IMG/VR virus record: IMGVR_UViG_3300035208_002606
From: a virus
Lineage: Duplodnaviria; Heunggongvirae; Uroviricota; Caudoviricetes
Strand: one strand, 5' to 3'
Length of the DNA stretch: 29,572 nt
A program made the position numbers and the translations under genes. Shown piece after piece: positions 2,080-26,173 of the stretch; position 1 is the stretch's first letter; each line of letters opens with the position of its first letter. Under the pieces are notes generated by a model. That model did not search any database and was not told the DNA's origin. It saw only the letters and a program-made list of their open reading frames with translations.

Positions 2080-3804
2080 ATGCCACAAACTAAAGAAGAA
2101 CGCAGGGCGCAGACATTAGCGTCCCGTAAAGGCAGAGTCAAAAGAATTTTCAGTATGTTCGGACGGCAACCCAATGCCGCAGAACTGTTGAAAAAGGAAA
2201 ACGCTGTAACCCCTTATGCGGCAGACGGATTATTCGGCAAAGGCGATTCAACGCTAACAAGGCAATATACGGACTATGTCTACGGTTCGTACCTAGTCAA
2301 ATTATCTTCCAAGGAAAGGGTCCGGGAATATTATCGTATGGCGGCTGACCCTGAAATCAACTATGCCCTTACGGAAATCTGCGATGAAATCGTGCAGGAA
2401 GATGAAAATAAAAAACTCTTCTCCATTCGCTTTGAAGATGATATGCCCGAAGCAAAACGCAATATCATTATCAACGAATTCAAAGATTTGATTATCAACC
2501 GCCTCCGCTTGGGAGATTACAATACGGTGTGGGAATGGGTTTATAAGTGGCTCGTACAAGGCATTATTATCTTTAAGGTCAACTTCTCCGAAGAAAAGGC
2601 TTCAGGTGTTGAAAGTTTGGAAGAACTTCAACCGTGGCTCGTAACCCATTATCAGGCCGAAAAGGTCGTGGACAAACAGTACAGCAAACAGGAGCAGGAA
2701 AAGAGATATTTTGTCGTGAAGGACAACGAGTCGGCAGAAGAAGGCTACAAGTATTTGGAAGAAGAAATCATTCACCTAGACAATGGCTACTGTTATGACG
2801 GCGAGTTCTTCTCCATCTTGGAGTTTGCCAAGAAGGATTGGCGGCGTTTGAATTTGATTGAAGATGCGACAGTCATCTACAAGTTGAGCCGCTCACCCCT
2901 TCGCAGAGTCTTCAAAGTTTATGTCGGCAAGATGGCTCCAAAGGATATCGAAAGGTTCCTTTACGATTTCCGTCAGAGACTTCGTGAAGATATTACCTAC
3001 GACCAAGATAAGGGAGAAATTGTAGGCTTCAATCCTATTACAATGCTTGACGATTACTTTTTCCCTGTAATGGAAGGCGGTCAGGAAACCTGTCAAGTGG
3101 ACACCATTTCTGAAAAGGACACCAAGTGGGAATCGATGGACGAGATTCGCTACTTCCTAGGAAAGGTATACAGGGCGATGAAAATTCCCGTGGGCAGAAT
3201 GAATCTCCCGAACGAGAACGGAGAATACACAACCTCCACAACAGGTAGCCGTTCAGGGGAAATCATGCGGGACGAGGTCAAGTTCTCCAACTTCACCAAG
3301 CGTCTCCAAGCCCGTTTTATGGAGCAATTCATTCAGGAACTTTTTTACAGACACTTATTTTTCCGAGGTTTGGTTGACGAATTAAAAATCAAAAAGAATC
3401 AAGTCGAAGTAAAGTTCACCCATGTCAACCCGTATTCGGAATTGAAGTCGGCAGAAGTTGAAGAATATCGTGCCACTTCTTTCGGTGCTTTAAATGCTAC
3501 ATCTCCGTATTTTTCTTTCATCTATCTCGCCAAGAGATATTTGAAGTGGACAGAAGACGAATTGAGAGATAACTTCGAGTGCTTGAAGCGTGAACAAGCC
3601 CTCATGCCACAAGGAGCAGGAGAAGAGGGCATGGCAGGCGGTGGCGGTGAAATGTTAGGCGGCGGTGGAGCGGGAGGCGAAGTTCCGGGGGCAACAACTT
3701 CCGAGGAAGAAACCACCTTGGAAGAAACCCCATCCACAGAAGCAACGGAACAAACAGGCACAGAAGTAGGAACTAGCCCCGAAACAACACTAGCACCTGT
3801 ATAA
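2080..3804 (+). CDS. gp20: Portal protein, T4 gp20 family, with a Gly/Thr/Glu-rich C-terminal tail
   Basis: Diagnostic motifs YYRMAADPEINYALTEICDEIV, LIEDATVIYKLSRSPLRRVFKVYVGKM, LDDYFFP, YRAMKIPVGR, IMRDEVKFSNF..RLQARF. Confidence 0.95.
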   Translation: MPQTKEERRAQTLASRKGRVKRIFSMFGRQPNAAELLKKENAVTPYAADGLFGKGDSTLTRQYTDYVYGSYLVKLSSKERVREYYRMAADPEINYALTEICDEIVQEDENKKLFSIRFEDDMPEAKRNIIINEFKDLIINRLRLGDYNTVWEWVYKWLVQGIIIFKVNFSEEKASGVESLEELQPWLVTHYQAEKVVDKQYSKQEQEKRYFVVKDNESAEEGYKYLEEEIIHLDNGYCYDGEFFSILEFAKKDWRRLNLIEDATVIYKLSRSPLRRVFKVYVGKMAPKDIERFLYDFRQRLREDITYDQDKGEIVGFNPITMLDDYFFPVMEGGQETCQVDTISEKDTKWESMDEIRYFLGKVYRAMKIPVGRMNLPNENGEYTTSTTGSRSGEIMRDEVKFSNFTKRLQARFMEQFIQELFYRHLFFRGLVDELKIKKNQVEVKFTHVNPYSELKSAEVEEYRATSFGALNATSPYFSFIYLAKRYLKWTEDELRDNFECLKREQALMPQGAGEEGMAGGGGEMLGGGGAGGEVPGATTSEEETTLEETPSTEATEQTGTEVGTSPETTLAPV

Positions 3805-3810
3805 AAACAC

Positions 3811-3907
3811 TAAATAATAGTGTAGGGACAAGATGTTGCAACATCATTTAAGAAACTCCGATTTTCTTAAATTACCTACACTATTTTGACATATCGGAGG
3901 TGTTAAA
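3811..3907 (+). ncRNA. Structured cis-regulatory RNA leader, copy 1 (three-way junction plus loop-SD pseudoknot)
   Basis: P1 3816-3826/3875-3885 (11 bp); P2 GATG 3832-3835/CATC 3842-3845 with loop TTGCAA; P3 3846-3855/3863-3872 (10 bp). P3 loop CTCCGAT is complementary to ATCGGAG 3893-3899, which overlaps SD GGAGG. A covarying second copy starts at 21497. Confidence 0.8.
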
Positions 3908-4738
3908 ATGTTGAAAGAATTTTTAATTAATTTATTAAAAAAAGAACATTTATCGTCCATAACAACAATTATTAAGAAACGATATAAAAATCAATATCAA
4001 AAAATTATTGAGAGAACAAATTATCTCCCTAAGAATTGTAGATTTACCGAAAGAATTTATCAAATAATAAACAACCTACAAGAAAAACCAAAATGTTATT
4101 GTGGAAAAAGTTTAAATTTTATTGATTACTCTTGTGGTTATCATGAGCATTGTTGTGTCAAATGTATAAATAATGACTTAAAAATAAAAGATAAAATTAA
4201 AAAAACTATGTTGAAAAGATATGGTGTAGAATATTCACTACAATCAGAAAAAATTCAAAGAAAAAGAAAAAAAACTAATTTAATGAAATATGGAAATGAA
4301 GATTATATAAATCTAAAAAAGCAAAAAGAAACCAATTTGATAAAATATGGAGCAACATGCGTATTGGCAGTAAGAGACATACATGAAAAAACAATGGAAA
4401 GTCGTTATAAAAAAAATTATAACCCATATAAAAATCATTATGGTAATTATAAAGGATTTAGTTATGAATCCTCTTGGGAACTTGCATTTATTAAATTTTG
4501 TTTAAATCATAATATCGAAATTGAACGTAATAAAAAAGGGTTTGTATATTGGTTCCAAGATAAAAAACATAGATATTATCCTGATTTCTATTTACCCGAA
4601 GTAGACCAATATATAGAAGTAAAGGCAGATTGGCTACTTAATGAGCAAACAAAAGAAAAAATAAAACAATTTCCGTATAAATTAGAAGTCTATACCAAAG
4701 AGAAATTAATAAACAATAGGATACTAAACAATAAATAA
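3908..4738 (+). CDS. Free-standing PD-(D/E)xK (TnsA-like) homing-endonuclease-like protein
   Basis: C-terminal YESSWE...YYPDFYLPEVDQYIEVK nuclease motif; central KKTxLxRYG/KYG repeats; Cys-rich CYCG..HCCVKC segment; much more AT-rich than the flanking portal and protease genes. Confidence 0.8.
   Translation: MLKEFLINLLKKEHLSSITTIIKKRYKNQYQKIIERTNYLPKNCRFTERIYQIINNLQEKPKCYCGKSLNFIDYSCGYHEHCCVKCINNDLKIKDKIKKTMLKRYGVEYSLQSEKIQRKRKKTNLMKYGNEDYINLKKQKETNLIKYGATCVLAVRDIHEKTMESRYKKNYNPYKNHYGNYKGFSYESSWELAFIKFCLNHNIEIERNKKGFVYWFQDKKHRYYPDFYLPEVDQYIEVKADWLLNEQTKEKIKQFPYKLEVYTKEKLINNRILNNK
4732..4737 (+). promoter_or_regulatory. Putative late promoter TAAATA overlapping the nuclease stop codon, upstream of the protease gene
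   Basis: ATAAATAA at 4731-4738, then SD gaggag and ATG 4758. Confidence 0.5.
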
Positions 4739-4757
4739 GCGTAGAGGAGATTAACAG

Positions 4758-5393
4758 ATGTCTAAACAGGTTTTAATGGAAACGGTTTCCGAGGTCAAGC
4801 CCATTGTGGACAAGAAGAACAAGTCGATTTGTTTCGAGGGAATTTTCGGACTTGCGGGAAAGAAAAATCTTAACGGCAGACTCTACCCGATGACCGTTAT
4901 GGAAAAAGCCGTCAAGGATTACAACGACTCTTTCATTTCCAAACACCGTGCCTTGGGGGAACTTGACCACCCTGAAGATGCGTCTGTTAATCTCCGAAAC
5001 GCCGCTTTCATTATTGAAGAGCCGTTGAAACTTCATGAGAACGGCGAAGTCCACGGCAAGGCAAGAATTCTTGAGACTACGCCGATGGGCAGGATTGCGG
5101 CTGACCTGATGCGGGAAGGCGTTGTCATCGGCCTTTCGTCAAGAGGGCTTGGAGAAATTTCCGAGAAGGAAGTTCTTGACGAAGAGACGGGGGAGAAGGA
5201 AATGGTAAACGAAGTTTCCGACTTTTCCATCGCAAGTTTCGACCTTGTAAGTGAGCCAAGTATCGGGATGTTCGTAAGCCAATCCAAACAGGAAGAAGGC
5301 ATCAAGAAACCCGAAGAGAAAAAAATTCAGGAGAAGAAGAATCTGAATTCGGGAGACTTGGTCTCGCTGTCAGAAATTTTATTTGAGGAGTAG
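4758..5393 (+). CDS. gp21: Prohead core protease, T4 gp21 family
   Basis: NLNGRLYP, ALGELDHP (catalytic His), GLSSRGLG (catalytic Ser) and FDLVSEPS motifs; lies between portal and capsid genes. Confidence 0.95.
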   Translation: MSKQVLMETVSEVKPIVDKKNKSICFEGIFGLAGKKNLNGRLYPMTVMEKAVKDYNDSFISKHRALGELDHPEDASVNLRNAAFIIEEPLKLHENGEVHGKARILETTPMGRIAADLMREGVVIGLSSRGLGEISEKEVLDEETGEKEMVNEVSDFSIASFDLVSEPSIGMFVSQSKQEEGIKKPEEKKIQEKKNLNSGDLVSLSEILFEE

Positions 5394-5563: not shown

Positions 5564-5923
5564 ATGTCTGAACATCTCGTAGTGCATTTATTAGTTGATT
5601 TTTATGGCTGTGACGCTGACAGAACCGCAGACGAAAAATACATCGAGAAAGTATTGGTAGAGGCTAGTAAGGAAGCAGGAACGGAAACCGTTACTTCCCT
5701 TTTTCACAAGTTTGTGAATCGGGGAGTGGACGGAGTTCTGATTACTGCCGACAGTTATTACGGTATTCGCACTTGGGTCAAAGAGGGTTATGTCAGTCTT
5801 GATTTTTACTCCACAAATGAGAAAGTGGAATCTAAAAAGGCTGTGGAATATTTATTACGAAAGTTCGGAGCAACGAAATACTCCGCTTCCGAGATTAAGC
5901 GGGGAGACAAAACGGAGGTATAA
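5564..5923 (+). CDS. S-adenosylmethionine decarboxylase (SpeD/SpeH class 1B)-like protein with substituted catalytic residues
   Basis: HLLVDFYGCD..., FHKF..xGVxGV, TW..xGYxxxDFY and terminal IKRG match the AdoMetDC proenzyme fold. However, ESH is DSY, SIHTWPE is GIRTWVK and FTCG is YSTN. Confidence 0.8.
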   Translation: MSEHLVVHLLVDFYGCDADRTADEKYIEKVLVEASKEAGTETVTSLFHKFVNRGVDGVLITADSYYGIRTWVKEGYVSLDFYSTNEKVESKKAVEYLLRKFGATKYSASEIKRGDKTEV

Positions 5924-5924
5924 A

Positions 5925-6125
5925 ATGCCATTAACATCTAAAGGTAAGAAAATAATGACAGCCATGAAAAAAGAATATGGCCCCGAAAAAGGCGAACGAG
6001 TATTTTACGCTTCCGCTAACAAGGGGAAAATAAAAGGCGTTCATAAGAAAATCAAGAAAATAACCAAAGAGGATATTGCCAAGTATGCAACGGCTGAAGA
6101 AAAGGAATTCTTAAAGGAAAGTTAA
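5925..6125 (+). CDS. Small basic phage protein (66 aa) with an appended KEDIAKYATAEEK..LKE motif
   Basis: Start reassigned to ATG 5925 (SD ggagg at 5914-5918). MPLTSKGKKIMTAMKKEYG..KGERVFYASANKGKIKGV matches my recollection of a widespread small basic phage family. Confidence 0.75.
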   Translation: MPLTSKGKKIMTAMKKEYGPEKGERVFYASANKGKIKGVHKKIKKITKEDIAKYATAEEKEFLKES

Positions 6126-6769
6126 TGTCTCAAATAGATAAGCATAAGTGGAATAAAACATATCGAGAAAAAAATAAAGATAAAATTAATAAAAAACAGG
6201 AATTACTTCGAAGAAAAAAAGGAATACTTCCTCGAAAAAAATATTTAAATGATGAAGAAAGAAAAGAAGATAGAAAAGAATATCGTAAAAAATATTATTC
6301 TCTTCATAAAAAAGAAGAAATTTTTAATACAATCAATTATAATAAAAACCATGAAGAAAAAAAGCGTCTTTATGATAAAAAATATAAAAAAATTAACAAA
6401 GAAAAAATAAATGAAAGAACAAAAAAATATATCGCTAATAAAACAAAAACAGATATAAATTATAAACTTAGTAAAAATTTACGGGGTAGATTGTATCATG
6501 CCATCAAAGATAATCAAAAATCAGGCTCCGCAGTTAAAGACCTAGGGTGTTCTATTCCTGAACTCAAAACCCATTTAGAATCCAAATTTCAAAAAGGTAT
6601 GACCTGGAACAACTATTGTTATCGGGGATGGCACATCGACCATATTATTCCCCTTGCCTCTTTTAATTTAACCGATAAGGGGGACTTTTTAAAGGCTAAT
6701 CATTATACCAATCTTCAACCTTTATGGGCAGAAGAGAATTTTAAAAAAGGAAAGACACAAAAACCATAA
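6125..6769 (+). CDS. HNH-like homing-endonuclease-like protein (paralog 1)
   Basis: Lys-rich helical N-terminus; C-terminal GMTWNNY..GWHIDHIIPL...HYTNLQPLWAEENFKK (ββα-Me/HNH-type); translationally coupled by TAATG. Confidence 0.8.
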   Translation: MSQIDKHKWNKTYREKNKDKINKKQELLRRKKGILPRKKYLNDEERKEDRKEYRKKYYSLHKKEEIFNTINYNKNHEEKKRLYDKKYKKINKEKINERTKKYIANKTKTDINYKLSKNLRGRLYHAIKDNQKSGSAVKDLGCSIPELKTHLESKFQKGMTWNNYCYRGWHIDHIIPLASFNLTDKGDFLKANHYTNLQPLWAEENFKKGKTQKP

Positions 6770-7743: not shown

Positions 7744-9099
7744 ATGTACGGAACAGGTGAAATGAAGTTGAAAAGACTTCGTGAAAAGTGGTCACGGCTC
7801 TTGAAGGGAATTAAGAGTGCCGAGACCCGCGACATGACCGCCATCGTTCTTGAGAACCAAGAAAATGAAATGCGGACAGTCCTAAGAGAATCTACCACAT
7901 CAGGCTACGGCTTCGGCCCAGGCGTGACAAGTGGTGATGTTGACAAATTCCCAAAATTGATGATTCCTATGGTTCGCCGTATTATGCCTCAGTTGATTGC
8001 AAATGAGATTTTCGGTGTACAGGCAATGGAAGGCCCAGTTGGTATGGCATTCACCCTTCGTTGGGTTTATGATTCTACCGTGACTTGGACTGACCCCGTA
8101 ACGGGTCGTGTGTATACCACAACCGCAGAAGAGCAGGCATATATTCCAGGAACCACACAGGCAAACCCTGTGTATTCAGGCGATTATAACAATGCTGATT
8201 ACGAAAGTTCAGCAGACGATGCAACGGCAAACACGGGCGGCTTCGGTCTAAGAAATGACCGCGGCGAAATCGTTTCCGATTTGAGTTATACGGGAGCGAC
8301 ACAGGCAGTTCCAACTGCCGCACTTGGGGCAACGGCAAATCCGTACTCCGAAGGCTCGTTGAAAATCATCAATAGACTTATTGAGGCTCGTACTCGTAAG
8401 TTGAAGGCAAATTGGTCGCAGGAAGCAGTTGACGACATCAAGAAGGTTCACTCGTTGAATCTTGAGCAGGAGATTGTTGACTTCCTTTCGTATCAGATTC
8501 AGGCAGAGATTGACCGTGAGTTGATTCTTGCCGCTTACAATCTTGGTACAACCAACGGCTTGTTTACATGGGACATCGCAAGCACGGATGGTCGTTGGCA
8601 GGAAGAGAAGTATAAGACCCTGTATCACGCAATCATCAAGGCATTGAACTACATCGGTCACCAGACTCGTAGAGGTCGTGCAAATTGGATGGTTGTGTCT
8701 TCTGAGGTTGCTTCGATTCTTTCGGCAATCAAGGCATTTGACTACAGCGCAGTTCAGCCCGTGGAAGGCTTCGAGCCTTACGAGGGTGGTGAAGGTGTTG
8801 TATATCTTGGCACAATCGAAAGCGGAAAGGTTAAGGTTTACCTTGACCTGTATTGGGAAGCACCCGCAAATAACGTGGACAAGGAAATTGGCTACATCCT
8901 GATGGGTTACAAGGGAAAGAAGAGTTTCGACTCAGGCATTCTCTATTGCCCATACATCCCAGTGATGATGATGAAAACCATCTCCCCACATGACTTCCAC
9001 CCATTGCTCTCATTGGGTAGCCGTTACGCAGTCGTAACGCAACTTTTGGACACGGAGAAATATTATGCTGTTGTATCCGTAAGGAACAGCGCATTATAA
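7744..9099 (+). CDS. gp23: Major capsid protein, T4 gp23 family
   Basis: KWSRLLKG, TAIVLENQE, PKLMIPMVRRIMPQLIANEIFGVQAM.GP.G..F.LR, RKLKANWSQEA..D, LS.QIQAEIDREL, GRANWMVVS, GYKG...DSGILYCPYIP; strong SD aaggagg. Confidence 0.97.
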   Translation: MYGTGEMKLKRLREKWSRLLKGIKSAETRDMTAIVLENQENEMRTVLRESTTSGYGFGPGVTSGDVDKFPKLMIPMVRRIMPQLIANEIFGVQAMEGPVGMAFTLRWVYDSTVTWTDPVTGRVYTTTAEEQAYIPGTTQANPVYSGDYNNADYESSADDATANTGGFGLRNDRGEIVSDLSYTGATQAVPTAALGATANPYSEGSLKIINRLIEARTRKLKANWSQEAVDDIKKVHSLNLEQEIVDFLSYQIQAEIDRELILAAYNLGTTNGLFTWDIASTDGRWQEEKYKTLYHAIIKALNYIGHQTRRGRANWMVVSSEVASILSAIKAFDYSAVQPVEGFEPYEGGEGVVYLGTIESGKVKVYLDLYWEAPANNVDKEIGYILMGYKGKKSFDSGILYCPYIPVMMMKTISPHDFHPLLSLGSRYAVVTQLLDTEKYYAVVSVRNSAL

Positions 9100-9122: not shown

Positions 9123-9151
9123 AGAAGGCCTCTTCGGAGGCCTTCTTTTTT
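9123..9151 (+). terminator. Rho-independent terminator after the capsid gene
   Basis: Perfect 10-bp stem AGAAGGCCTC/GAGGCCTTCT with a cUUCGg tetraloop, followed by a T-run. Confidence 0.92.
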
Positions 9152-9179
9152 ACACCTAATAAGCATAATATTTCCAACA

Positions 9180-11004: not shown

Positions 11005-11020
11005 CAATCTGTGGTATAAT
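11005..11020 (+). promoter_or_regulatory. Sigma70/SigA-type extended -10 promoter (TGTGGTATAAT), with an overlapping TAAATA at 11020-11025
   Basis: CAATCTGTGGTATAAT in an intergenic gap; 15/16-identical copy at 11873-11888; no clear -35. Confidence 0.7.
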
Positions 11021-11041
11021 AAATAGAGATAGGAGAAAACT

Positions 11042-11863: not shown

Positions 11864-11872
11864 AAATCACTT

Positions 11873-11888
11873 CAACCTGTGGTATAAT
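11873..11888 (+). promoter_or_regulatory. Sigma70/SigA-type extended -10 promoter (TGTGGTATAAT)
   Basis: CAACCTGTGGTATAAT, intergenic, followed by SD ggag and ATG 11908. Confidence 0.7.
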
Positions 11889-11907
11889 TAAGAGTGGAGA
11901 AACGATT

Positions 11908-19269: not shown

Positions 19270-20097
19270 GTGGCAAGATTCGAGTATGTGAACAATACAA
19301 TCCAAGAATTGTATGTTCAAACTTACGCAATTACTGATTCTGCTATTAAAGAACTCCGAGTATTGCGCCAAACAACCAACCCTCAAGTTTTAGTGGGTGG
19401 GTGGACGGCCTCTGCAACCACATTGGGATTTGACACGTTGGTTGGTACTTTACCGCCAGCAGGAGTATTCCTTTGCGGAACAGAGAAAATCCAATATGGT
19501 TCAATCACTTGGAACGCAGACGCAGTATCGGGAACCTTCAATTCTTGTAAAAGAGGATGGGAAGGAACTACAGCCGCAATTCATCTGGAGAACGCCAACA
19601 TTTATTTTGGTGATGCGTTCGCTTTGAATACGCAGGCAGCAGCGGCTTTTACAGACTCTCTTACAACGATTCCGTTTTCAGGTTTAGACCGTCCAGGTCA
19701 AATTCCTGAAACAGGTGTTGTAATGGTGGAAGATGAATGGATTTGGTACGGTGGAGTAACCTACACCGATATCAATCACACCGCAGGAAACCTGTTGTAT
19801 TGCTTCAGAGGATACAATGGAACAACCGCCGTGGCCCACGCAGGAGATACAACGGCTCTCGACTTGAGATTCGAACATATCTTCAAGCACAGAGAAAGTG
19901 TGGCTATCTATAATTACACCGCTAGCCCATTGCCGATGTATTACGGATTCAACCCAACAATCACCAATGCGGGAACTAATGCTCTACCGATTCTTTACGG
20001 AGAATCAGTAACCATCCCGTTAGGATGCACCAATCGCATTTACGCAATTAGCGGAGAAAGAGATGGCGGGGTTGTAGCAATTGCGGAGTGGAGGTAA
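19270..20097 (+). CDS. Beta-rich virion structural protein (decoration/fibre-like), paralog A
   Basis: Thr/Gly/Ala-rich; two internal E.I.YG..T....G....RG..GTTA..H repeats; C-terminal N..IY.G....G..L..GES......IYAIS....V.IAEWR jelly-roll-like domain. Confidence 0.7.
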   Translation: MARFEYVNNTIQELYVQTYAITDSAIKELRVLRQTTNPQVLVGGWTASATTLGFDTLVGTLPPAGVFLCGTEKIQYGSITWNADAVSGTFNSCKRGWEGTTAAIHLENANIYFGDAFALNTQAAAAFTDSLTTIPFSGLDRPGQIPETGVVMVEDEWIWYGGVTYTDINHTAGNLLYCFRGYNGTTAVAHAGDTTALDLRFEHIFKHRESVAIYNYTASPLPMYYGFNPTITNAGTNALPILYGESVTIPLGCTNRIYAISGERDGGVVAIAEWR

Positions 20098-20100
20098 CAC

Positions 20101-20751
20101 ATGAGCAAAAAAATTATTCCAGCAAACTATGAGAGAAATGAGTTTGACAAAGAAGTATTCACCGAAGCAATCGTCTACACAAAGCAGTTTGATGTGGGCG
20201 GCGTTGCTACCAAAATCACCAATGCGGCTCTGACCACATTCGGGCTTGCAGATGTTCTCGCCGCTGGCGGAACTCGTATTCAATTTGATACTTTGGTTGG
20301 CAACCTTCCTTGGTCAAGTTATTCCAAGTACACTATCAGCGAACCACGCACTACCACTCCACCGATTCCATTGGCATCTTTGCCATCGGCAGGGTCAGTA
20401 ACCATTACTGAAGGTGCAACAAGCGAAGTAATGTATTACGGGTCAGTAACTTGGACAAGCGCCACGGCGGGATATCTTAACAATGTTAAGAGGTCTTCGA
20501 CAACCAATGCATTTACTGCTGCGGCAACAGGTGCGTTCACCAATGTAATTCCTGTTCGGGAAAAAATCCTGATTTGGAATCGTACCGTTGGAACCCTGTA
20601 TATCGGCAATAGTGCGGCTATGTTGAACACCCCAACCAACTGTGTTAAATTGGCCTTTGATGGTCAATGGGGTATTTGGTTAGAGCCTCTACAAGACCTT
20701 TGGGTACTCCCATCAACAGGCGGCTTAATTAACATCGCTGAGTACAGGTAA
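20101..20751 (+). CDS. Beta-rich virion structural protein, paralog B
   Basis: One copy of the internal repeat (EVMYYGSVTW...AG.L..VKR); similar C-terminal domain ending INIAEYR. Confidence 0.7.
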   Translation: MSKKIIPANYERNEFDKEVFTEAIVYTKQFDVGGVATKITNAALTTFGLADVLAAGGTRIQFDTLVGNLPWSSYSKYTISEPRTTTPPIPLASLPSAGSVTITEGATSEVMYYGSVTWTSATAGYLNNVKRSSTTNAFTAAATGAFTNVIPVREKILIWNRTVGTLYIGNSAAMLNTPTNCVKLAFDGQWGIWLEPLQDLWVLPSTGGLINIAEYR

Positions 20752-20765
20752 GAAGGAGGTAACAC

Positions 20766-21422
20766 ATGAACACTATGACAACTGAAGAAATTTTGAAGGC
20801 ATATGAGGCGCAGGAGACTGAAGAACAGGCTCTTATCGAGAAGAAAAATGCCAAAATCCAAGCAATTGTAGAGTCTAGGCAGAAAGCCGAGGCCCGTAAA
20901 GCGAAGATTAAGGAAATCAAGAAAAAGATTCTCGAAAAGCGCAAGTCTTTGAAAGAAGGAAAGAAGACCTTGAAAGAGGAAAATGAATACACCATCGAAG
21001 GTGATGAAGACATTGAAGACGTTGAAGACGTTGAAGACGTTGAAGATGTTGAGGGTGATGAGGATGTTGAAGAAGGAGCCGAAGAGGAAGAAGTTGCAGA
21101 AGAGGACGTAGAAGAACTGCAAAAAGAATCCAAGCAGGCAATCCTCAAGAAAATTGCAGAGCGCAAAAAGCAGGATATTCTCAAGAAGATTGCAGAGCGA
21201 AAGGCCCAGGCTGAAGCCGAGCAAAAAACACTTGCAGAAAAAAAGGAACCTGTGAAAGAGAAAAAAGAGGTGAGAGTAGGCACATTGCTCGAAGCCGCAG
21301 AAGGCGACAAGAAACGCCGCTTCTCTGTTTACCGTGAAGAAAAAAGCCATTTCTTCCTAAAGGAACTTGGCTCAGGCAAAACCTTCAAAATCGCAAAAGA
21401 GAAAGTCGAATTAACAGACTAA
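20766..21422 (+). CDS. Highly charged coiled-coil/acidic protein with a small C-terminal beta domain
   Basis: SD aaggagg; Lys-rich helices flank a D/E/V tract; ILKKIAERK occurs twice. Confidence 0.8.
   Translation: MNTMTTEEILKAYEAQETEEQALIEKKNAKIQAIVESRQKAEARKAKIKEIKKKILEKRKSLKEGKKTLKEENEYTIEGDEDIEDVEDVEDVEDVEGDEDVEEGAEEEEVAEEDVEELQKESKQAILKKIAERKKQDILKKIAERKAQAEAEQKTLAEKKEPVKEKKEVRVGTLLEAAEGDKKRRFSVYREEKSHFFLKELGSGKTFKIAKEKVELTD
21006..21050 (+). repeat. Five tandem 9-bp units (GAAGACGTT, with variants) encoding (EDV)n
   Basis: gaagacatt gaagacgtt gaagacgtt gaagacgtt gaagatgtt. Confidence 0.9.
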
Positions 21423-21435
21423 AGTAAATAGTATT

Positions 21436-21473
21436 AAAATGGCTCTTAATTTCTGATTAAGAGCCATTTTTTT
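21436..21473 (+). terminator. Rho-independent terminator
   Basis: 15-bp perfect stem AAAATGGCTCTTAAT/ATTAAGAGCCATTTT with a 5-nt loop and a T-run. Confidence 0.88.
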
Positions 21474-21496
21474 AAGTACAAAAATAATAAAAATAA

Positions 21497-21591
21497 TAAA
21501 TAATAGTGTAGGGACAGGGGATGCAACCCTTTCTAAAAAGCCAATCCTTTTTAGATTACCTACAAAAAAATAAACTTGATTGGAGGTTTAT
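21497..21591 (+). ncRNA. Structured cis-regulatory RNA leader, copy 2
   Basis: First 20 nt identical to copy 1. P1 TGTAGG/CCTACA; P2 GGGG/CCCT with loop ATGCAA; P3 TCTAAAAAG/CTTTTTAGA. P3 loop CCAATC pairs with GATTGG 21578-21583, overlapping SD GGAGG. Confidence 0.8.
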
Positions 21592-22281
21592 ATGAAGAGA
21601 AAATATTTTACAGAAGAAGAAAAGAAAAATGCAGAAAAGAAAAGATATTTGGATAATAAAGAAAATATTTTAAAATACCAAAAAGAATATTATCAAAGTA
21701 ATAAAAAAATTATATCAATACGAAGTAAACAACGATATGAAAATAAAAAAGAAAAAATTTTAAAAAAACAAAAAATATACGAAGAAAAACATAGAAAAGA
21801 AAAAAGAATATACGCAAAAAAATGGTATCAAAAAAATAAAAAAGATAGACTAATACAATGTAAAAAATATAGAAAAACTCACAAAAAAGAAATAAACCAA
21901 TATTTCACCAATAAAAAACAAATAAATATTGACTATAAACTTACTTGTGTGTTACGCACTAGGTTATATATTGCTCTAAAAAATAACCAAAAATCAGGCT
22001 CCGCAGTCGAAGACTTAGGTTGTTCCATCCCCGAACTCAAAACCCATTTGGAGTCCAAATTTCAAGAAGGAATGACTTGGAAGAATTGGGGTATTTATGG
22101 ATGGCATATTGACCATATTATTCCTTTAACTTCTTTCGACCTAACCAATAGAGAGGAACTTTTAAAGGCTTGTCATTATACCAACCTTCAGCCATTATGG
22201 GCAGAAGAGAATTTAAAAAAAGGAAAAACACCACCCTTTTCAGCAAATGTTGAAAAGGGTAAAATCAATGAAAACCCATAA
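21592..22281 (+). CDS. HNH-like homing-endonuclease-like protein (paralog 2)
   Basis: Start reassigned to ATG 21592 (SD GGAGG 21582-21586). The C-terminal domain is nearly identical to that of 6125..6769 (NQKSGSAV.DLGCSIPELKTHLESKFQ.GMTW...WHIDHIIPL...HYTNLQPLWAEEN.KKGKT). Confidence 0.85.
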   Translation: MKRKYFTEEEKKNAEKKRYLDNKENILKYQKEYYQSNKKIISIRSKQRYENKKEKILKKQKIYEEKHRKEKRIYAKKWYQKNKKDRLIQCKKYRKTHKKEINQYFTNKKQINIDYKLTCVLRTRLYIALKNNQKSGSAVEDLGCSIPELKTHLESKFQEGMTWKNWGIYGWHIDHIIPLTSFDLTNREELLKACHYTNLQPLWAEENLKKGKTPPFSANVEKGKINENP

Positions 22282-22284
22282 ATA
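22279..22284 (+). promoter_or_regulatory. Putative late promoter TAAATA overlapping the HNH stop codon, upstream of the glycan cluster
   Basis: CCCATAAATAA; same ending as HNH paralog 1 (CCATAAATAA). Confidence 0.5.
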
Positions 22285-22330
22285 AAGATGCAAAGGAAAA
22301 TATTTTTCAAAAGGATGAAAATAAAGCACC

Positions 22331-25300
22331 ATGCCGTATTACAAGAGCAAAACGGAAAAAGAGGTTGTTGTTAGATTAGGAAAAAATAAGAAAGAAATCA
22401 AAGTAGGAACCAAGCCCCAATTTTTACCCTACGAAGACATTCATTTATTGTTCCCAAAGTACATTACAAAACTAGGAAAGGCAGAAACGGCAACAGTTAT
22501 TAAAGAAATCAAACCCCTTACAAAACACAAAATAATAGATGAACGAATAAAAAATGAAATCATAAAACAAAACCCACAGACTTTTCAAATACACTTTCTA
22601 CAGGAAACGCTTCCTACAGGAAGTTGGAATAATCAGCGTTGTTTCATTATCGGCGGTGGGCCTTCTTTAAAGGAATTTGATTTCTCCAAACTCCAAGGTG
22701 AAAGAGTTATTGCCATCAACAAAGCATTTGTTGACGCTCCTTTTGCAGACATTCAATTTTCCGTTGACCGCCAATTTCAAGAGTGGGTGACAGACCCTAA
22801 AAAAGGCGGCGATAAAATGGCAAAGGCTCGTGATGCTTGGCCCCATTTTAAAGGACACAAGGTATGGCTCAAAGTCCCAGGAGAACATTACTTCGAAGGG
22901 ATAGAATTTGTCAAGTCAGCAGGAAATGAAGGGATTAGTCTATCACTTGAAGAGGGGGTTTATGATGGTTCCAATTCGGGATACGCCGCTCTAAACCTTG
23001 CAATCGCATTGGGGGCAAATCCAATTTATCTTTTGGGTTATGACATGAAGCATAATAATGGCAACAGCCATTATCACGAAGGATATTTTAAAGAACAGAA
23101 GGAGAACCAATTAACTCTTTTTGCGAGAAAATTTCCAAAATTGGCAGAATTAGCAAAGGAAAAAAATATTCAAGTTGTAAATCTTAATCAAAATTCCGAA
23201 CTCCAATGCTTCCCCTTTGATACACTTGAAAACGCTTTAAAGCCTGTATTCAAAGAAAAAAAAATATCCGAAAAAAATTATATCATCGTGAGTTTTTATA
23301 CTCCTGAATATACCAACGATATTTTACGACTGACCCAATCAGTAGAAAAATTTGAACTGCCATACCATTTCGAATTATTAAAACATTTACCTCTTGAAGG
23401 CAAAAACAAGCAAAACAATTGGAGCAAAAATGCATACCAAAAGGCAAATTTTATCAAAAATATGATGACAAAATTCCTCGACAAAAACATTATATGGATT
23501 GATGCCGACGCCGTGGTACAGGAATATCCTTATCTTTTTGATAACATGCCCGATTGCGATATAGCCGTTCATTATAGAAGAGGGAAAGAACTATTGACAG
23601 GAACAATGTTTATACGCAACAACGAATTGATGAAAAATGTGGTAGAAAAATGGATTTTTAAAAATGAAAAGAGTCCTTATTTTTTAGAACAAAAAAACTT
23701 GGAAGAAGTTCTTCGGGAAACCCCACAGGTAAATATTCACCATTTACCTCTTGCTTATTGTCAAATATTTGATGGGTTCGAAGGAAAATCTAGACCCGTT
23801 ATCGAACATTTCCAATCTTCAAGAAAATGGAGAAAGAAGGAAGATATTCAAAAGAAAATAACCGTTCTCATGCCCACCTACAATCAAGGGAAGTTTATTC
23901 AGGAATCCATCGACAGCGTACTTAGTCAAACCTTTACCAACTTTGAATTGATTATCGTGAATGACGGCTCTACGGACAACACGAAAGAAATCTTGGAACG
24001 ACAGACAGACCCCAGGATTAGGATTATTCACAAAGAGAATGGTGGTACGGGTTCAGCCTTAAATTTGGGATTTGAAAATGCCGTAGGGGAATACGAAACC
24101 TGGCTAGCATCGGATAATAAATATTACCCCAACGCTCTTCAAGACATGTTCAATATTTTAGAAAAAAAGAAAAATGTTGATTTCGTCTACTGTAATTGTG
24201 AAATCGGGGTTATGGACGAAACAGGATTAGGAGAAGTCACAAGAAAGAATTATAATTCAGAAATTTCAATGGAGTGGGATTCTTATAAATTTTACGAGCA
24301 TCACAATATTGGTGTTATTTGGCTATGGAGAAAGGAATTAAGATTGGTTTCAGGCACACATTTCATTACTGACCCTTGTGAAGATTATGAAATGACCATT
24401 CGGATGATTGAAGCGGGTGGAAATTTTTATTATCATCCTACTGTTTCGGGTTGGCATAGAAGGCATCCCGAAAATCTTACTAAAAAATTATTGACATCGG
24501 GGCAGTATGTTCAGAATTTAGTAAAGGCTATGGTAAATCGCAGGAATAATAAATTAAAAAGCGGTGCTGAATCCATTTTTACGAATATTTATCAGAATAA
24601 CAAATGGCACGGAACAGAATCAAGGTCGGGCCACGGGTCCACTTTAGCCGCGACAGAAAAAATAAGAGAAGGCATCCCTACACTTTTTAAAAAGTATAAA
24701 ATTAAAACGATAATTGATGCGGCTTGTGGAGATTGGAATTGGATGCGCCATCTAACAAGCACTTTGGATTTTGAAAGTTATATGGGAATAGACATTGTAA
24801 AGGATATCATTGATAAAAATATTGAAAATCATGAAAATGAAAAAATCACCTTTCATAATATGAACCTAATTAACCAAAACTTAACAACAAAAGCAGATGT
24901 GATTGTTTGCCGAGATATGCTAAACCACTTATCTAATTTTGATGTTATAGAGGTATTAAAAAATTTCATCCAATCAGGCTCCACATACATGCTGATAACG
25001 AATTTCCCAAAAGAAAGACCCAATAAAGATATTCTTACGGGTGCGTGGAGAACAATAAATTTTGGCAAAGAACCATTTGAATTCCCTTCCCCCATCGAGA
25101 CCATTAATGAAGGCTGTGATGTTACGGATATTCTTGGTACATACGAAGATAAAGAGATGGCCCTTTGGAAATTAGATGATATTGCAGAGATAATTTTTAA
25201 AGAAACTTCTAGTCCAAAACACAAACAAAGGGTAATTAACAATGCTGTTATTGAAGCCATAAAATTATTGAAACAAGCCCCCGAACCTCCCCAGCAGGCT

Positions 25301-26173
25301 AATTTATCAGAATGGTGTTTAAAGAAAATTCCTAAAAAAATATTTTTTTATTGGGGTGCGGAAGTCTTGCCGTTTTTACATTATTTAACGATTAAATCTT
25401 TTATCAAATTTAATCCCGATTGGAAGGTTATTTTTTATAGGCCCAAAGAACTTTCCTTAGAAAAACCTTGGTCGGGATGGGAACACAAATACAAATTAAT
25501 CTGTGATGATTATATGGATAAATTGTTGGAGTTGCCATTGGAATTGAGATATTTTGATGCCCGTTGTTTGGGAATGGAAAACCATTATCCCGAAATTATT
25601 AAATCGGATTTTTTAAGATGGCATTTATTGGCTACTGAAGGTGGGGTTTGGGCAGATATGGATATCATTTTTACGGCATCTATGAACCATCTCAGATTCA
25701 ATTACAAGAAGAATGAAAATGTGGATACGGTAGTTGCCATCTGTGAGGATTTCCTGCCCGAATATATGTTCCACACTATCGGGTTTATGATGTCTAGTGG
25801 TAACAATGATTATTATAATTACATTGCCGAAAAATCTAAAAAGGTAAGTAATAATTTCACAGATTATGAGATGGTCGGAAACCAATTACTAAATAAAGAA
25901 TTTCCTAGCATCAAAAAAATACAAGAAACATTTCCGTCTTTGGTTGTGGAAAATGTACCTTTCGAAAGTCTTTATGTGTATTATCCGCTTAAACGGGTTC
26001 CTGAACTTTTCAGCGAAGAGGGAATAGAAAGAAGAACCAATAATTCAATCGGAATTCATTGGTATGCTGGACATTTTTGCGTGGAAAAACCCGTCAATGG
26101 AATAACAGAGTTTAATTATAAAACATATTCTAACACCCCTATTGGGAAATTTATTCAAGAAGCGATGGAATGA
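22331..26173 (+). CDS. 1280-aa multidomain glycan-modifying protein: N-terminal module, DUF115/Maf-like transferase, GT-A (DxD), GT2, class I SAM methyltransferase and GT32-like DxD domain
   Basis: IIGGGPS..VIAIN..NSGYAALNLA..LGA.PIYLLGYDM; KANFI...IIWIDADAVV; VLMPTYN...ELIIVNDGSTD; IY..N.W...ESRSG.GS...IIDAACGD.NWM; IPKKIFFYWG...KSDFLRW..L..EGGVWADMD. Confidence 0.88.
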   Translation: MPYYKSKTEKEVVVRLGKNKKEIKVGTKPQFLPYEDIHLLFPKYITKLGKAETATVIKEIKPLTKHKIIDERIKNEIIKQNPQTFQIHFLQETLPTGSWNNQRCFIIGGGPSLKEFDFSKLQGERVIAINKAFVDAPFADIQFSVDRQFQEWVTDPKKGGDKMAKARDAWPHFKGHKVWLKVPGEHYFEGIEFVKSAGNEGISLSLEEGVYDGSNSGYAALNLAIALGANPIYLLGYDMKHNNGNSHYHEGYFKEQKENQLTLFARKFPKLAELAKEKNIQVVNLNQNSELQCFPFDTLENALKPVFKEKKISEKNYIIVSFYTPEYTNDILRLTQSVEKFELPYHFELLKHLPLEGKNKQNNWSKNAYQKANFIKNMMTKFLDKNIIWIDADAVVQEYPYLFDNMPDCDIAVHYRRGKELLTGTMFIRNNELMKNVVEKWIFKNEKSPYFLEQKNLEEVLRETPQVNIHHLPLAYCQIFDGFEGKSRPVIEHFQSSRKWRKKEDIQKKITVLMPTYNQGKFIQESIDSVLSQTFTNFELIIVNDGSTDNTKEILERQTDPRIRIIHKENGGTGSALNLGFENAVGEYETWLASDNKYYPNALQDMFNILEKKKNVDFVYCNCEIGVMDETGLGEVTRKNYNSEISMEWDSYKFYEHHNIGVIWLWRKELRLVSGTHFITDPCEDYEMTIRMIEAGGNFYYHPTVSGWHRRHPENLTKKLLTSGQYVQNLVKAMVNRRNNKLKSGAESIFTNIYQNNKWHGTESRSGHGSTLAATEKIREGIPTLFKKYKIKTIIDAACGDWNWMRHLTSTLDFESYMGIDIVKDIIDKNIENHENEKITFHNMNLINQNLTTKADVIVCRDMLNHLSNFDVIEVLKNFIQSGSTYMLITNFPKERPNKDILTGAWRTINFGKEPFEFPSPIETINEGCDVTDILGTYEDKEMALWKLDDIAEIIFKETSSPKHKQRVINNAVIEAIKLLKQAPEPPQQANLSEWCLKKIPKKIFFYWGAEVLPFLHYLTIKSFIKFNPDWKVIFYRPKELSLEKPWSGWEHKYKLICDDYMDKLLELPLELRYFDARCLGMENHYPEIIKSDFLRWHLLATEGGVWADMDIIFTASMNHLRFNYKKNENVDTVVAICEDFLPEYMFHTIGFMMSSGNNDYYNYIAEKSKKVSNNFTDYEMVGNQLLNKEFPSIKKIQETFPSLVVENVPFESLYVYYPLKRVPELFSEEGIERRTNNSIGIHWYAGHFCVEKPVNGITEFNYKTYSNTPIGKFIQEAME

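Follow-up and report, generated by a model that had tools for sequence, protein, structure and literature searches.

The stretch of DNA that we analyzed (the window) comprises 29,572 nucleotides of an uncultured phage (IMG/VR virus record IMGVR_UViG_3300035208_002606) that is T4-like, with genes for a gp20-type portal (2080-3804), a prohead protease (4758-5393), and a gp23-type capsid protein (7744-9099). The capsid protein shares 34% identity with those of the nearest cultured phages, a megablast search of positions 20000-24000 against 50,697 phage records returned no match, and the public sequencing runs that contain the stretch are exclusively DNA metagenomes (landfill, groundwater, freshwater, and similar sources). 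On its plus strand, the window carries two copies of a structured RNA leader, each located directly upstream of a nuclease gene. Copy 1 (3811-3910) precedes a gene for a DUF7487 nuclease (3908-4738), while the 98 bases of copy 2 (21497-21594) precede a gene for an HNH-like homing endonuclease of 229 amino acids (21592-22281, plus strand), whose ATG start codon lies at 21592.

The 5' part of copy 2 forms a three-way junction (21506-21565), which is recognized by our covariance model R1 with 72.8 bits (E = 3e-18) and appears in the minimum-free-energy (MFE) fold. The junction is closed by helix P1 (TGTAGG at 21507-21512 paired with CCTACA at 21559-21564) and continues through the strand J1/2 (GACA, 21513-21516) into P2 (GGGG at 21517-21520 with CCCT at 21527-21530, loop ATGCAA) and P3 (TCTAAAAAG at 21532-21540 with CTTTTTAGA at 21547-21555), from which the strand J3/1 (TTA, 21556-21558) leads back to P1. 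P3 is capped by the 6-nt loop L3 (CCAATC, 21541-21546), referred to here as the anti-Shine-Dalgarno "address" loop. A second hairpin, P4 (21570-21591), follows, with the stem ATAAACTT (21570-21577) and AGGTTTAT (21584-21591) and the 6-nt loop L4 (GATTGG, 21578-21583). The Shine-Dalgarno (SD) sequence GGAGG (21582-21586) is divided between L4 and the 3' arm of P4. RNAfold predicts P1 to P3 and the 3' hairpin in both window copies (z scores of -4.3 and -2.6), and the junction covariance model detects both of them at 69-73 bits (E of about 1e-17).

The two copies begin with the same 20-mer, TAAATAATAGTGTAGGGACA, which occurs exactly twice in the window (3811-3830 and 21497-21516; zero occurrences expected from 100 shuffles), and they also share the 3' segment ATTACCTACA; both identities had been pointed out in an earlier note on this DNA. 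Between these segments, an alignment of the copies shows that their sequences differ while the pairing is kept. The same note had claimed compensatory changes in every stem, which agrees with this picture except for P1, which is the same in both window copies and covaries only in the wider family described below. It had further proposed a pseudoknot between the P3 loop and the flank of the SD. L3 and its proposed partner are indeed exact complements in copy 2 (CCAATC at 21541-21546 and GATTGG at 21578-21583), and in copy 1 the L3 sequence CTCCGAT pairs with ATCGGAG at 3893-3899. Given that GATTGG is itself the loop of P4, however, the contact is better described as a kiss of two hairpin loops than as a plain pseudoknot.

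To collect further copies, we searched IMG/VR contigs with an exact pattern, which yielded 23 of them, and ran two junction covariance models (R1 and R2) over loci gathered in four ways (an alignment of HNH proteins, a looser promoter/J1-2 pattern, whole related genomes, and a metagenome scan). In total, 62 distinct members of the leader family were collected, spread over about 30 metagenomic phage contigs; three related genomes carry 5 (169 kb), 7 (223 kb, complete), and 11 (an 89-kb fragment) of them. With Rfam 15, the whole window gave no match at the gathering score (riboswitches, ribozymes, and int-alpA, RF02996, included), and a permissive scan of 21400-21650 returned only chance-level matches at E values of up to 10. 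In concordance with Rfam, the cores of the hammerhead, twister, and pistol ribozymes and of the purine riboswitch were rejected by eye due to mismatches in the junction strands. The leader was also absent from all of about 70 loci that encode relatives of the HNH-like protein in other phages, and the upstream sequences of these loci were no more complementary to the SD of the gene behind them than those of 542 other genes (mean best run of 4.33 in both; p = 0.6, with a crude picking of start codons). Hence, the element is a property of one phage clade, and its design is not general to the nuclease family. Two outlying hits were found at the margin of the family. One of them (L063:5904-5972, minus strand, 26-27 bits), with TATAAATA upstream, precedes a CCA-adding-enzyme-like gene and has no match between loop and SD, and we took it as a chance hit. 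The other (L096:240-304, minus strand, 35.7 bits) is a distant junction relative with GUGAGG/CCUCAC, GACAG, and UUA and an 11-nt L3, whose complement GUAUACUA does not coincide with the SD but is located about 16 nt 5' of it, and about 70 nt from P1.

The 51 distinct junction sequences of the family have 98.7% of their alignment cells paired, and 13 of the 18 junction pairs change on both sides, values that were reached by none of 500 shuffles. When the pairing partners were slid against each other as a control, junction pairing fell to 39-55%. Exceptions to Watson-Crick pairing comprise 65 G-U cells versus only 12 nonpairs, which favors an RNA of the sense strand as the object of selection. 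P1 occurs in the family as GUGUAGG/CCUACAC, GUGAAG/CUUCAC, GUGAGA/UCUCAC, and GUGAGG/CCUCAC. The earlier proposal that the structure, including the loop-SD contact, is under selection is thus supported in 62 copies. About 10 junction nucleotides (GACA, U, and UUA) are nearly invariant across the family; this agrees with the earlier note for GACA and TTA but not for the P2 loop bases TGCAA, which it had also listed as invariant and which are not conserved. Comparison of closely related leaders shows that variation at the four "address" positions of L3, and at the bases that pair with them, reaches the level of the unconstrained flank upstream; the GACA and UUA junction strands show hardly any. 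A short upstream open reading frame (ORF) that could be read from GTG TAG at the start of P1 was considered and rejected, since an SD is missing and the GTGAAG subclass does not conserve the frame.

In 44 of the 49 copies that could be parsed, L3 forms 6-7 contiguous Watson-Crick pairs with the bases just 5' of and inside the SD, even though these copies contain 38 distinct L3 sequences, and the same matching was found in nine further copies from metagenomes. By the same measure, 542 SD-bearing genes of other phages average 4.3 pairs and attain at least 7 in 1.7% of the cases. The duplex energy of L3 with its own partner (-9.2 kcal/mol) is far more favorable than with the partners of other copies (-4.5 kcal/mol) or for shuffled loops (-4.8 kcal/mol). 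The kiss helix was also evaluated in a MAFFT alignment of ten HNH-linked leaders made without regard to any structure, where it is 98.3% paired, with four of its six pairs changing on both sides. The L3 target ends 6-11 nt 5' of the start codon. Of 46 copies, 36 have this target within a hairpin loop of the MFE fold, and 23 have a stem of 5 bp or more that encloses exactly the target. P4 by itself is weak (mean of -4.1 kcal/mol), and the folding programs used cannot represent the kiss. Within one genome, each leader copy has a different L3 "address". With both partners being hairpin loops that are complementary over the loop, the contact is best read as a kissing loop that would form in vivo. 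Fully complementary kissing loops are known from ColE1 RNA I/RNA II and HIV-1 TAR-TAR*, where both loops, of 6-7 nt, are paired from end to end. Those kisses are intermolecular or engineered, whereas the one predicted here from sequence is intramolecular and has the ribosome-binding site as one of its loops.

All leader copies are preceded by the motif AAAA(C/T)A(A/C)TAAATA(A/G)TA, which resembles the T4 late promoter TATAAATA. In copy 2, this T4-type late-promoter-like motif reads AAAATAATAAATAATA (21489-21505, plus strand), and its core TAAATA ends 3 nt before P1. An (A/C)(A/T)TAAATA box precedes the leader as well as many late genes. Many late genes of the window have a NATAAATA box 16-60 nt upstream, which is found twice as often on the coding strand as on the other strand and is also present at the empty portal-protease site of relatives (see below). 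In T4, late promoters consist of a TATAAATA-like box about 6 nt before the transcription start and are used by gp55, of which a homologue is encoded in the related genomes G001 and G002 (30% identity, E = 4e-7). By analogy, transcription of the leader would start at about the third base of GTG, i.e., among the first bases of P1. Upstream of copy 2, a terminator-like hairpin with a T run (AAAATGGCTCTTAAT...ATTAAGAGCCATTTTTTT; 21436-21476, plus strand) closes the preceding gene (20766-21422), although the scan gives the same 15-pair stem on the minus strand, and the plus-strand reading was made by eye, with the T run lying partly within the stem. Given this position behind a putative terminator, the transcript of copy 2 should start at its own promoter and include the whole structure, so that the leader would have to act on the cassette's own transcript.

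All classifiable ORFs behind the leaders encode nucleases, namely 22 GIY-YIG (with NUMOD3), 14 HNH-like, and 8 DUF7487 proteins, while the remaining ones are shortened nuclease ORFs or are cut by contig ends. The leader is therefore portable between nuclease classes, as had been claimed earlier, except that there are three classes instead of two. The copy 1 nuclease, which had been taken for a PD-(D/E)xK enzyme, is identified here as a DUF7487 protein. The assignment of the copy 2 protein to the HNH type is tentative: the protein itself matches phrog_28061 (unknown function), members of its family match endonuclease VII (phrog_1035) and HNH (phrog_7091), a GWHIDH...HYTNLQPLWAEEN motif (GWHIDH...N...N) is invariant in nine relatives, and its Atlas neighbors are named HNH endonuclease, but the Pfam HNH model was reached at best with an E value of 0.13 and by one family member only. 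Given these matches and the failure to reach Pfam HNH, we refer to the protein as HNH-like. NCBIfam returned nothing for it, PDB sequence searches with both nucleases gave nothing useful, and its AlphaFold model has a mean pLDDT of 73, with values below 60 over most of the catalytic region. The window also encodes an HNH-like paralogue with 54% identity (6125-6769, plus strand), which has no leader, as noted earlier, and whose start overlaps the stop codon of the upstream gene in the sequence TAATG.

Leaders are also found in front of decayed genes. In the complete genome G002, four intact leaders with matched loops (L016:438, L016:5917, L153, and L106:6071) precede nuclease ORFs of 15-50 codons; in the L153 leader, the promoter (TGAATA) and one P2 pair are damaged as well when compared with its intact counterpart L158. 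At the site that corresponds to that of copy 2, this genome contains a remnant (L106:8605-8659) in which P1, P2, and half of P3 are joined to an internal part of an HNH-like ORF, suggesting that a deletion took out the rest of the leader together with the start of the gene.

Leader and nuclease gene move together. In G001 and G002 (L174 and L175), the region between portal and protease genes is an empty site without insert (portal-TAA-ACAATAAATAG...GGAGG-ATG-protease), whereas the window has at the same site (3802-3830 and 4720-4760) the leader and the DUF7487 gene, with a late-promoter motif at both ends. This shows that a single cassette insertion brought in both the leader and the nuclease gene. 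Each of the three nuclease genes in the window ends with a TAA (4736-4738, 6767-6769, and 22279-22281) that is part of the ATAAATA motif of the next gene, and TAAATA is found within -6 to +12 nt of the stop codon in 14 of 41 complete family genes. Furthermore, two nearly identical leaders, both with the address CCTGTT and the partner GAACAGG, precede an HNH-like gene in one case (L255:979-1038) and a GIY-YIG gene in the other (L004:3376-3435), with the exchange point at about the start codon, indicating that leaders are swapped between nuclease classes. Cassette insertion, like the structure, its covariation, and the exclusive link to endonuclease genes, is established by these data.

Phage genomes often contain homing endonucleases, whose expression has to stay low enough to spare the carrier; to our knowledge, the only RNA controls described for them are single hairpins in T-even phages. 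We consider it likely that the leader is a portable, cis-acting translation brake on homing-endonuclease cassettes, composed of a putative late promoter, a junction, and a kiss that buries the ribosome-binding site. According to this model, transcription from the putative T4-type late promoter probably begins where P1 begins or a few bases into it. The 5'-most ~60 nt of the transcript would then fold into the three-way junction, whose P3 hairpin offers the 6-7-nt loop L3, and the next ~25 nt would form P4, with an L4 loop exactly complementary to L3. L4 would carry the 5' half of the SD together with 3-4 "address" bases 5' of it, while the 3' arm of P4 would carry the remaining SD and reach the AUG. 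In this way, the L3-L4 kiss, stacked on P4, may bury the entire ribosome-binding site and block binding of the 30S subunit, so that very little nuclease would be translated. The promoter motif and the leader travel with the nuclease gene as one unit, and the leader is exchanged among GIY-YIG, HNH-like, and DUF7487 genes. Translational repression by the leader is what we infer from this predicted arrangement, and, besides the weakness of P4 alone, four observations speak against this reading. First, the promoter motif lies upstream of the whole structure, so that no form of the transcript is predicted to escape, unlike in T4. Second, a kiss of about -9 kcal/mol on top of P4 would stop translation almost completely. 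Third, a simple brake does not explain the near-invariance of GACA, U, and UUA. Fourth, several intact leaders sit before the decayed nuclease ORFs of G002.

The first three of these observations bring a conditional switch into consideration, in which the junction would sense a small molecule, a phage or host protein, Mg2+, or temperature, and the signal would set L3-L4 docking and thereby restrict translation of the nuclease to a certain state of the infected cell. If the block were constitutive and had the predicted strength, no nuclease would be expressed, a consideration in favor of some mechanism of release. In addition, a covarying junction with about 10 near-invariant unpaired nucleotides is laid out like those translational riboswitches in which a tertiary contact hides the SD. 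Among these, the SAM-II and preQ1-II/III riboswitches are SD-sequestering pseudoknots, with an aptamer domain whose tertiary contact includes the SD. The leader shares with them a structured, covarying, aptamer-like domain, invariant junction nucleotides, and a predicted contact that includes the SD; unlike them, it is followed only by selfish nuclease genes with no metabolic theme, it has no relative in Rfam, and no alternative, mutually exclusive pairing was seen. Given also that the family is restricted to one narrow phage clade and that stacking in the junction or promoter-proximal functions would account equally well for the invariant bases beside P1, we regard a conditional switch as unlikely. 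The related idea that the junction is a sensor, with a ligand or a phage or host factor gating the docking of L3, and that the addresses are at the same time kept different between coresident copies, strikes us as doubtful as well. If the sensor reading were true, the family would represent a new riboswitch-like class for timing the expression of selfish nucleases, and the hypervariable, always-matched 4-nt address would be a private lock for each nuclease gene.

RNA structures that sequester the ribosome-binding site are established for I-TevI, I-TevII, I-TevIII, and segB of T4 and for mobE of Aeh1 (PMC2988022). The leader resembles these hairpins in being a cis structure directly upstream of a phage homing-endonuclease gene that buries the SD, as predicted for the leader, in its association with a motif like the T4-type late promoter, and in its presumed purpose of limiting nuclease synthesis. 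The T-even hairpins are single and have the late promoter embedded, so that late transcripts escape, while in the leader family the promoter-like motif precedes the whole fold, the predicted burial of the SD relies on the kissing of two loops, one belonging to a three-way junction and the other to a second hairpin, and the element occurs in many copies (5-11 or more per genome) and with three nuclease classes. A temporal control in the style of T4 would require that read-through RNA folds fully, with P1 extended by AUAG/CUAU, and that late transcripts, which start inside P1, fold worse and get translated. Such a scheme would parallel the embedded late promoters of I-TevI, segB, and mobE (PMC2988022), and in many copies a CTAT after P1 can indeed pair with ATAG in the promoter region to give a 10-bp P1 in read-through RNA only. 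We nevertheless give it little credence. The embedded promoter of the I-TevI type is not found in the leader, where TAAATA ends 3 nt before P1 and any plausible start precedes L3, P3, and P4, which would leave the SD-burying contact in late transcripts. The P1 extension is, moreover, absent from HNH-type copies with CCTACAA or CCTACAT ends, and the terminator-like hairpin before copy 2 would leave little read-through to silence, yet the full design is kept there.

PeSL (promoter-early stem-loop) cassettes of T4-type phages, described by Arbiol et al. in 2010, reportedly consist of early promoters and simple stem-loops and presumably act via DNA recombination. The leader is similar to them as a repeated module of promoter and stem-loop that bounds mobile or shuffled gene cassettes in T4-like genomes, but it has a putative late-type promoter and a covarying RNA fold aimed at the SD. 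It is very improbable that the junction is cut off, for example at an AU-rich linker before P4, as a stable trans-acting small RNA, or that the conserved segment mainly helps cassettes to shuffle by recombination of the DNA. In favor of such roles, copies with different genes behind them have the same 20-nt promoter/P1 segment, late-promoter repeats bound the cassettes, the same leader occurs on different nuclease classes, and each copy within one genome has a different L3 "address". Against them, the only SD flank that L3 matches is the one of the gene behind it, at a distance of 35 nt in cis, with the 3' parts of other copies doing no better than shuffled loops, and the G-U pairs and double-sided changes in four helices point to selection on an RNA fold and not on DNA identity.

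The best reading is thus that the leader acts like the T-even leader hairpins but differs from them in the embedded promoter, in architecture, in copy number, and in portability. As a translation brake, it would have the same aim in a more elaborate, portable design that three unrelated nuclease classes share and that is moved as one cassette. We found no description of a kissing-loop or otherwise structured leader of homing endonucleases in the literature that we searched, although it may sit among the unnamed motifs of large surveys of phage RNAs (PMC10690425). The 38 loop sequences, all matched, can be regarded as an experiment of nature in which compensatory mutations probe a tertiary RNA contact, which makes the leader a good model for the evolution of kissing loops and possibly a tunable part for attenuating translation. 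In addition, the leader is an aid in annotating the genomes of uncultured T4-like phages, where it helps to recognize free-standing endonuclease cassettes and to delimit them.

Several further features of the window were noticed during this work. A strong GC-rich hairpin with a T run (GAAGGCCTCTTCGGAGGCCTTCTTTTTT, 9125-9160) is located directly 3' of the major capsid gene and is followed by a TATAAT-like box before 9210. Two intergenic spacers (11005-11041 and 11864-11907) have in common the extended -10-like box CTGTGGTATAAT, which suggests a second, nonlate type of promoter in the structural region. A gene for an AdoMet decarboxylase-like protein (5564-5923; Pfam AdoMet_dc, E = 7e-28) lies within the head-gene module, with the protease on one side and scaffold and capsid genes on the other. 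Directly downstream of the copy 2 cassette, a protein of 1280 amino acids (22331-26173) contains several glycosyltransferase domains and a methyltransferase domain.
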